Below the pieces are notes generated by a model. That model was not told the origin of the DNA and did not search any database. It worked only from the letters and a program-made list of their open reading frames with translations. Below, piece by piece: positions 6,002 to 6,350 of a stretch of 6,553 nucleotides of DNA. The translations under genes were made by a program, and so were the position numbers. Source of the DNA: a virus (taxonomy: Duplodnaviria; Heunggongvirae; Uroviricota; Caudoviricetes); the IMG/VR virus record IMGVR_UViG_2695420808_000003; one strand, written 5' to 3'. Within the stretch, counting starts at the first letter, position 1; every line of letters begins with the position of its first letter.

Positions 6002-6076
6002 TGGAGCGGGCAGCGGGAATCGAACCCGCATCATCAGCTTGGAAGGCTGAGGTAATAGCCATTATACGATGCCCGC
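6002..6076 (-). tRNA. tRNA-Gly (anticodon UCC)
   Basis: Reverse complement is a 75-nt cloverleaf GCGGGCATCGTATAATGGCTATTACCTCAGCCTTCCAAGCTGATGATGCGGGTTCGATTCCCGCTGCCCGCTCCA. Anticodon loop CTTCCAA, T-loop TTCGATT, encoded CCA. From memory it matches E. coli glyT-type tRNA-Gly2. Confidence 0.9.
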
Positions 6077-6079
6077 ATA

Positions 6080-6155
6080 TGGTGCCGACTACCGGAATCG
6101 AACTGGTGACCTACTGATTACAAGTCAGTTGCTCTGCCTGCTGAGCTAAGTCGGC
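6080..6155 (-). tRNA. tRNA-Thr (anticodon UGU)
   Basis: Reverse complement is 76 nt, GCCGACTTAGCTCAGCAGGCAGAGCAACTGACTTGTAATCAGTAGGTCACCAGTTCGATTCCGGTAGTCGGCACCA. Anticodon stem ACTGA/TCAGT, loop CTTGTAA, T-loop TTCGATT, CCA end. Resembles host thrU-type tRNA from memory. Confidence 0.9.
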
Positions 6156-6157
6156 GC

Positions 6158-6234
6158 TGGCCCACCACCGAGGACTCGAACCTCGCACCGTCAACTTAGA
6201 AGGTTGATGCTCTATCCGGATGAGCTAGTGGTGG
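6158..6234 (-). tRNA. tRNA-Arg (anticodon UCU)
   Basis: Reverse complement is 77 nt, CCACCACTAGCTCATCCGGATAGAGCATCAACCTTCTAAGTTGACGGTGCGAGGTTCGAGTCCTCGGTGGTGGGCCA. Perfect 7-bp acceptor stem, D-stem GCTC/GAGC, anticodon stem TCAAC/GTTGA with loop CTTCTAA, T-stem CGAGG/CCTCG, CCA end. Confidence 0.85.
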
Positions 6235-6235
6235 T

Positions 6236-6312
6236 TGGTGGCCCTTGCTGGACTTGAACCAGCGACCTGGCGATTATGAGTCGCTCGCTCTGACCAACTG
6301 AGCTAAAGGGCC
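6236..6312 (-). tRNA. tRNA with anticodon CAU, most likely tRNA-Ile2 (lysidine type; elongator Met not excluded)
   Basis: Reverse complement is 77 nt, GGCCCTTTAGCTCAGTTGGTCAGAGCGAGCGACTCATAATCGCCAGGTCGCTGGTTCAAGTCCAGCAAGGGCCACCA. Anticodon loop CTCATAA, T-loop TTCAAGT, discriminator A, CCA. Backbone resembles ileX/ileZ-type tRNAs as I recall them. Confidence 0.85.
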
Positions 6313-6321
6313 GGAGGCAGA

Positions 6322-6350
6322 ATAATAACCATATGTCATCACATCTGCAA
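6322..6350 (-). promoter_or_regulatory. Candidate sigma70 promoter for the tRNA array
   Basis: On the minus strand: TTGCAG (-35, 6350-6345), a 17-nt spacer, then TATTAT (-10, 6327-6322). This places the transcription start a few nt upstream of the first tRNA 5' end (6312). Confidence 0.35.

Follow-up and report, generated by a model that had tools for sequence, protein, structure and literature searches.

Among the described systems, those closest to the locus studied here are the ileZ-argN-argO tRNA cluster of Shiga toxin (Stx) phages, the thrU-tyrU-glyT-thrT-tufB operon of the Escherichia coli chromosome, and the eight-tRNA cluster of the virulent phage T4, for which the supply of tRNAs that read rare codons is the established rationale. 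In its chromosome, E. coli K-12 carries two genes for tRNA-Ile2 (ileX and ileY) and one for each of the other three tRNAs that are of interest here, i.e., Arg(UCU), Thr(UGU), and Gly(UCC). We analyzed a stretch of viral DNA of 6,553 nucleotides (IMG/VR record IMGVR_UViG_2695420808_000003), hereafter called the window, which is the late region of a lambdoid prophage and has, in the gap between Q and the lysis genes, an array of four tRNA genes in the order Ile2-Arg-Thr-Gly. That the array is a common, already annotated module, and a known kind of lambdoid late-region phage tRNA cluster, is well supported. Literature searches on ileZ, argN, and argO and on lambdoid tRNA-Thr and tRNA-Gly found no description of this array, nor was any account found, within the literature that could be searched, of the exact host origin of Thr-Gly at mature length, of the conserved dedicated promoter, or of the anticodon plasticity of the family.

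Exactly four tRNA genes were called in the window by ARAGORN, all of them on the minus strand, and the four were also recovered with the Rfam tRNA model RF00005 at scores above its gathering score of 29 (E ≤ 1.8e-10). In the direction of transcription, these are a tRNA-Ile2 gene of the ileX/ileZ type at 6236..6312 (anticodon CAU, reported by ARAGORN as Met/Ile2(cat); 70.5 bits), a tRNA-Arg gene with a phage-lineage scaffold at 6158..6234 (anticodon UCU, for AGA and AGG; 56.4 bits), a tRNA-Thr gene at 6080..6155 (anticodon UGU, for ACA; 69.8 bits), and a tRNA-Gly gene at 6002..6076 (anticodon UCC, for GGA and GGG; 64.9 bits). The spacers between them measure 1 (A), 2 (GC), and 3 (TAT) nt, and the 3' CCA is encoded in all four genes. 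The same identities are found in RefSeq records with a 100%-identical array, where PGAP named the genes tRNA-Ile, tRNA-Arg, tRNA-Thr, and tRNA-Gly. A four-tRNA array had been noticed in a preliminary description made from the letters of this DNA, and the observation is confirmed; the spacers of 3, 2, and 1 nt given there follow plus-strand order, and the gene order, stated without a strand, is right for the minus strand. We presume, from what is known of the family, that the Ile2(CAU) species decodes AUA after lysidine modification. The Arg gene contains A20, C35, U36, and G73, and the identity elements that can be read in the array (A20, C35, and U36 of Arg, and the thrU and glyT bodies of the last two genes) are consistent with the charging of the predicted tRNAs.

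Comparison with the K-12 genes indicated where the last two genes came from. The Gly gene was identical to glyT at all 75 positions (100%), and the Thr gene matched thrU at 74 of 76 (97.4%), with only two T>C differences, U16C and U20C, both in the D-loop. The corresponding identities were 89.6% for Ile2 with ileX and 73.4% for Arg with argU. Phage genes were more distant, since the window Thr and Gly genes shared 78.9% and 84% identity with the Thr and Gly genes of T4, respectively, and the tRNA-Thr of phage 21, considered as a possible relative, was set aside because it is 67.5% identical to the window gene and not thrU-like. The Thr and Gly genes are therefore nearer to thrU and glyT than to the T4 or phage 21 genes, in agreement with the host origin proposed in the preliminary description.

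The likeness to the host operon lies in the mature Thr and Gly sequences, and most sister arrays even have a Thr gene that is 76/76 identical to thrU. Nothing else of the host operon, i.e., tyrU, thrT, tufB, the promoter, or the flanks, is present in the array; the match is confined to the mature tRNA segments, and at most 1-2 flanking bases are possibly host-derived. In the chromosome, thrU and glyT are separated by 8 nt, tyrU, and another 116 nt, whereas the interval is 3 nt in the array. In this TAT spacer, the first T could stand for the base that follows thrU and the AT for the two bases that precede glyT, and the host flanks were considered as proof of an origin by deletion; this was discarded, because only the 3-nt spacer fits, which would happen about once in 16 times by chance and is too short to count as evidence. 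The idea that Thr and Gly came from the thrU-tyrU-glyT-thrT operon and were left side by side without tyrU is upheld by the identity of the mature tRNAs (74/76 and 75/75). Both genes would be mature-tRNA copies of host thrU and glyT, joined head to tail with a 3-nt spacer.

When 5,426 complete E. coli genomes were searched, at least 80% of the 361-nt array region was found in 601 of them, with an identity of 99% or more in ten records. The junction of Thr, 3 nt, and Gly was also present in more than 120 IMG/VR contigs and, among species-representative genomes, in those of E. coli, Shigella flexneri, Citrobacter braakii, and Enterobacter hormaechei. Because the array is so frequent and reaches other genera, the capture is not private to the prophage under study; it is old and shared by a prophage family, and we would place it in the ancestor of this large family.

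The first two genes have a different pedigree. The window Ile2 is 96.1% identical to ileZ of Stx phages, and the window Arg is 83.1% identical to argN, whose anticodon is UCG. BLAST alignments with Stx phages begin a little upstream of the -10 element of the putative promoter described below and end exactly at the last base of the Arg gene, and as the homology stops there, Thr-Gly appears to sit, in effect, where argO stands in Stx phages. These values and the position of the break fit the earlier remark that lambdoid and Stx-type phages typically carry Ile2(CAU)-Arg-Arg at this position, whereas Thr and Gly follow Ile2-Arg in the array studied here. The Stx cluster, as found in Stx2a_F349 (AP012530), occupies the same kind of slot, after Q, pR', and tR' and before the stx or lysis genes; it has a promoter-like site, TTGCAA-17-TATTAT, at 9 nt from the tRNA, and a spacer of 1 nt between ileZ and the second gene, both as in the window. 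The differences are the anticodon of slot 2, which is UCU in the window and UCG in the Stx phage, and the third gene, since argO(UCU) follows after a 13-nt spacer in the Stx phage and Thr(UGU)-Gly(UCC) is found instead in the window. We considered argO as a thrU derivative, given the shared D-arm with an extra A at position 20, and rejected this candidate, as argO is 74% identical to the window Thr and 72.7% identical to argU. The array would thus be a composite, with Ile2(CAU) and Arg(UCU) taken from an old phage lineage known in Stx phages as ileZ-argN.

A sigma-70-type promoter was predicted upstream of the Ile2 gene, at 6322..6350 on the minus strand, with the -35 element TTGCAG (6350-6345), a 17-nt spacer, and the -10 element TATTAT (6327-6322), just as it had been described before; in a consensus scan, it was shifted by one register and read TTTGCA-18-TATTAT, with 9 of the 12 positions matched. 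Between the -10 element and the first tRNA base there is a GC-rich discriminator/leader of 9 nt (6321-6313). When 39 distinct upstream sequences from 97 loci were compared, the -35 TTGCA and the -10 TAT(T/C)(A/T)T were conserved, their distance to the first tRNA gene being constant, and the hexamers were kept across at least eight unrelated flank lineages that differ in the promoter spacer and in the upstream DNA, Stx phages included, one Stx2a phage having this site ahead of ileZ. This phylogenetic footprint is good for a real promoter, whose function we infer. A second promoter-like match, TCGGCA-16-TATAAT (10/12), spans the Thr-Gly junction at 6061-6088 on the minus strand; it stems from a TATAAT in the glyT D-arm, recurs in sister arrays, and is probably fortuitous.

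The array is flanked by terminator-like sites. On the upstream side, GCGGG followed by seven T at 6401..6412 on the minus strand makes up the 3' half of an intrinsic terminator that resembles tR', with its 5' half hidden in a run of 71 undetermined bases (N) at 6413-6483. The complete hairpin can be read directly upstream of the array, after a Q-like antiterminator gene and a short gap, in two prophages that are free of an insertion sequence (IS) at this place: AACCCGCCGATGAGCGGGTTTTTTT in L094, i.e., IMG/VR contig 2684622770_000003, which is the nearest match to the window (99.97% over 1-6412), and AGCCCGCTTTATGCGGGTTTTTTT in L003, from E. coli FDAARGOS_944, whose array is 100% identical to that of the window. 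None of the 5,426 complete E. coli genomes searched covered at least 80% of the window. On the other side, a strong intrinsic-terminator-like hairpin of 10 bp (6 GC; 5389-5363) with a T-run occupies 5353..5389 on the minus strand, about 30 nt before the holin start, and may be the end of the tRNA transcription unit; terminator-like sites between array and holin were also seen in lineages with unrelated flanks (L001 and L006). With such sites on both sides, the array looks like a tRNA operon that is complete in itself and lies inside the late operon.

The predicted course of expression follows from this arrangement. The operon, placed just past a tR'-like terminator, would have its own sigma-70 promoter and GC-rich discriminator, which suggests that it is expressed in the lysogen too, constitutively, besides late infection; during lytic growth, Q-modified polymerase coming from pR' would add further transcription. 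The leader of the primary transcript would be only about 2-4 nt long. By analogy with polycistronic tRNA processing in E. coli, the four tRNAs would be released from one another by RNase P cleavage at every 5' end, and the trailers of 1-3 nt would then be trimmed to the encoded CCA by 3' exonucleases (RNase T/PH).

Next, codon usage was compared with a baseline of 40 K-12 genes (14,678 codons), and 59 codons were ranked by their share within the amino-acid family; L003 served as a second sample beside the genes of the window. AGA was enriched 7.3-fold in the window (p = 2e-5) and 9.5-fold in L003, and ACA 2.1-fold (p = 0.009) and 2.6-fold, respectively. For the remaining codons read by the array, the window and L003 values were 2.0-fold and 1.3-fold for GGG (the latter not significant), 1.4-fold (not significant) and 1.7-fold for GGA, 1.7-fold (not significant) and 3.6-fold for ATA, and 3.3-fold (3 codons, not significant) and 12-fold for AGG. 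The enrichments of ATA, AGA, AGG, ACA, and GGA were all significant in L003. In the ranking, AGA came 1st, ATA 8th, ACA 9th, and GGA 13th in the window, and the order in L003 was AGG (1st), AGA (2nd), ATA (3rd), ACA (5th), and GGA (7th).

Taken with the gene content, these data lead us to the reading, to which we assign a probability of roughly 0.6, that this is a compact four-gene composite tRNA operon that probably supplies scarce tRNAs for rare codons. With the array, the cell would have more of four tRNAs that are of low abundance and read the host-rare, A-ending codons AUA, AGA, ACA, and GGA. Several points weigh against it. CGG, CGA, and CCC, which are rare and for which the array has no tRNA, were enriched too; in the window alone the enrichment of ATA, with 8 codons, and of GGA did not reach significance; the support for the promoter is conservation only; the exact host identity of the Gly and Thr genes could equally come from a recent capture or gene conversion and not from functional selection; and decayed copies in the family, such as a Gly gene described below, indicate that upkeep of the array is not absolute. 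Since CGG, CGA, and CCC behave in the same way, the codon data are consistent with codon supply and not specific to it. The earlier suggestion was that the array, which reads the rare AGA, AGG, and AUA codons, probably supports late-gene translation; the cognate codons are indeed over-represented in prophage genes, though not specifically.

The mosaic surroundings of the array raise the question of whether Thr-Gly has a function at all. The flanks are mosaic on both sides of an array that is itself more than 90% identical, the Stx-phage homology breaks exactly at a tRNA boundary, and the block 5329-6412, which comprises the terminator, the promoter, the four tRNA genes, and the 670-680 nt that follow up to just before the holin, recurs in many loci at more than 99% identity beside different neighbours; this recurrence suggests that the block behaves as one recombination module. 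In addition, an IS3-family element separates the array from the Q region in the prophage of the window, and the family includes decayed or odd copies (slot-2 genes with 6-nt loops or with tta or aaa anticodons, and one Gly deletion). Thr-Gly could then be hitch-hiking duplicates whose function is selected weakly or not at all, their likeness to the host being due to recent capture or to gene conversion with thrU and glyT, in an array that mainly offers homology for recombination of the Q/lysis module. We consider this explanation unlikely, because the promoter hexamers, their fixed distance, and intact cloverleaves have been kept in more than 100 loci and several genera, 110 of 128 loci have the Gly allele unaltered, the tRNA species present correspond to the over-represented codons and recur in T4, and a dedicated promoter is not expected of a neutral passenger.

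The restoration of a host tRNA gene disrupted by integration is a common reason for tRNA segments in prophages and has been proposed for the single Thr(UGU) gene of HK446 (bioRxiv 10.64898/2026.07.10.737580), a gene that was not among the close matches listed in the phage collection. Applied to this array, the explanation is effectively refuted by position, and we regard it as very improbable: the array is located mid-late, between the Q-like gene and the holin and not at an attachment site, its genes are complete and have their own promoter, and the host thrU-tyrU-glyT-thrT operon, which matched in 5,425 of the 5,426 genomes searched, is therefore not a target that integration has disrupted.

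The choice of Thr(UGU) and Gly(UCC) also touches on nucleases that act on tRNA. OLD of P2, known classically for the exclusion of lambdoid phages, acts preferentially on tRNA-Thr(UGU), which it destroys by cutting at paired CNG motifs in the anticodon stem (PMC12445682), and in tRNA-seq data obtained after activation of OLD, Thr(UGU) and Gly(UCC) were listed first among the depleted tRNAs (bioRxiv 10.64898/2026.07.10.737580). The targets of the PARIS nuclease AriB are Lys(UUU), Thr(UGU), and Asn(GUU); its site is U36-A-A-U-C-A41, and a change at U39 or A41 gives resistance (PMC12409363). The phage tRNAs that resist OLD have altered CNG motifs (nt 28-30 and 40-42) and a shortened anticodon stem, and the tRNA-Thr of phage 21 protects against OLD (PMC12445682). 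As Thr(UGU) and Gly(UCC) of the array are among these published targets, the array might replace or buffer tRNAs destroyed by Toprim tRNases of competing elements (OLD of P2, or AriB of PARIS on P4-like satellites), the lambdoid gap between Q and the lysis genes being a locus for spare tRNAs against such enzymes. Phage 21 (L139 39506-39746, OL657228) fits this possibility, as its slot equivalent to that of the array, from tR' to the holin, contains Asn(GUU) and Thr(UGU), a pair that makes up two of the three reported AriB targets, with Thr(UGU) being the main OLD target as well. So do two groups of sister arrays: those with Lys(UUU) in slot 2 (54 of 128 loci), where position 39 is G and not the U needed by AriB, and those with G42U/U43C in Thr (4 of 128), a change that shortens the anticodon stem and breaks a CAG motif, as in the published resistance signature.

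The alleles of the window speak against resistance. Its Thr gene keeps the anticodon arm of thrU (C28-U29-G30, C40-A41-G42, A37, and an intact 5-bp stem), the AriB site U36-A-A-U-C-A41 is unchanged, and its Gly gene is an exact host copy. The resistant tRNAs, namely, Thr(UGU) of T4, T5, and Bas32, Thr of phage 21, and tRNA-Lys of T5, share the anticodon UGU with the window Thr in the case of the Thr species, and they differ in their altered CNG motifs and shortened stem, whereas the window Thr keeps the host arm. Given this intact arm, the window Thr should be cleaved, and by the published determinants both Thr and Gly should be sensitive to OLD. Overexpressed host ThrU gave little or no protection from OLD (PMC12445682), and E. 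coli Thr(UGU) gave no rescue (bioRxiv 10.64898/2026.07.10.737580). Moreover, substitutions in the family are not concentrated in the anticodon stem, and Ile2 and Arg(UCU) have not been reported as prime targets. The overlap may have another source, and the unifying inference that we draw is that tRNAs of low abundance, with one or two genes, are the point on which phages and nucleases alike have converged. For these reasons, we hold it doubtful that the gap between Q and the holin is a counter-defence locus in which thrU and glyT were captured as the tRNAs most depleted by OLD, Thr(UGU) being hit by PARIS too, with host-like alleles, the U16C/U20C Thr of the window among them, as the raw material for resistant ones (G42U/U43C, or Lys(UUU) with G39) and at least partial protection by the window allele through dosage or through contacts outside the anticodon arm.

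For the variation of the family, architectures and alleles were compared in 128 related loci. Ile2-Lys(UUU)-Thr-Gly was found in 54, the Ile2-Arg(UCU)-Thr-Gly type of the window in 36, and Thr-Gly only in 20 of them. The Thr allele of the window is present in 31 loci and the thrU-identical allele in 76, and the Gly allele is the one found in 110; hence, at each slot of its haplotype, the window has a common, undecayed family allele. The Thr alleles with G42U/U43C in the anticodon stem include one with further changes that restore pairing. In E. coli RMDEC332 (L005 1775-1845), the slot-4 Gly gene is decayed: its anticodon loop is altered and the gene is called as Val (UAC), one nucleotide of the acceptor stem is deleted, and the CCA is lost.

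Anticodons vary on both scaffolds. That of slot 2 has UCU in the window, UUU in the 54 loci, and UCG in argN of Stx phages (examples are L001, L002, L007, L008, L143, and IMG/VR loci); the UUU form is unusual in having C33 and shows a mismatch between A51 and C63, in rare forms the anticodon loop is 6 nt long or the anticodon reads tta, aaa, or taa, and the gene is at times missed by tRNAscan-based annotation. At slot 3, the thrU-derived gene of E. coli TW10690 (L006 1673-1748) has changed from UGU to UUU by a single base, and that of phage SerU-LTIIb (L138 1122-1197), which has two copies of the array, from UGU to UCU; L005 1696-1771 (RMDEC332) is another slot-3 variant locus. In the loci with Thr-Gly only (L024 at about 12965-13030 on the minus strand and 19 others, e.g., L009, L031, and L057), a promoter-like site and Thr are separated by a structured element of about 55 nt that is not a tRNA. 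It has the form GGTTC(C/T)GA..GGG...CCC..GA..GAACCA, with outer and inner stems kept in diverged versions and tandem G-A mismatches, and it gave no Rfam match and fold z-scores of -0.4 to -2.6.

The array is located between the Q/pR'/tR' region, of which the window retains the terminator remnant at 6401-6412, and the lysis genes. The first gene of the lysis cassette, at 5107..5322, encodes a P21-type class II holin (Pfam PF04971, E = 1.5e-35), and it is followed downstream, also on the minus strand, by the genes for lysozyme (4610-5107), Rz (4149-4625), an HNH endonuclease (3756-4106), directly upstream of those for the small (TerS, 3140-3643) and large (TerL, 1410-3143) terminase subunits, and the portal (60-1307). 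The pairing of HNH and terminase genes is usual for HK97-like cos packaging modules. In the gap of about 680 nt between Gly and the holin, the open reading frames at 5742-5957 and 5529-5702 had no Pfam or PHROG match, PGAP annotated nothing in the gap of the near-identical L003 region (about 99% over window positions 4363-6412), and Rfam reported nothing besides the tRNAs, this gap included.

At the other end, the sequence that follows the N-run up to the window end at 6553 is the 5' end of the IS3-family element on the plus strand, with the transposase ATG at 6538 (MKKRNF...), and the 70 bases after the N-run match IS3-family transposase loci in 3,999 of the 5,426 E. coli genomes. The IS occupies the site that, in near-identical prophages, holds the Q-like gene, the pR' region, and the terminator stem; accordingly, the late genes of this genome are probably cut off from Q and pR', and the tRNA operon keeps its own promoter.

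Collectively, the locus shows how a temperate phage may assemble a tRNA set, from an old Ile2-Arg pair and copies of host genes trimmed to mature-tRNA length, in a module with a conserved promoter of its own that has spread to about one-tenth of the complete E. coli genomes and to other enterobacteria. Having that promoter, the array may change translation in lysogens as well as in lytic growth. Two of its tRNAs, Thr(UGU) and Gly(UCC), are of species attacked by P2 OLD, which makes a testable link to tRNA-targeting defences, even though the evidence from the window alleles argues against resistance.

As a supply of tRNAs for rare codons, the array has its nearest phage parallel in T4, whose cluster includes the same four anticodons (UCU, CAU, UGU, and UCC), and by analogy this choice supports the logic of codon supply. 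The T4 genes all read A-ending codons and are also closely packed, mostly 0-10 nt apart, with the Arg gene set apart, beyond segB. T4 differs in being virulent, in its diverged Thr and Gly genes, and in having four further tRNAs and two small stable RNAs. In the laboratory, helper plasmids of the pRARE/CodonPlus type supply ileX, argU, glyT, and thrU, among others, and relieve the limitation at AUA, AGA, and GGA codons. They follow the same logic with partly the same genes, and they differ in being artificial and in carrying whole host operons; the array described here would be their natural counterpart.

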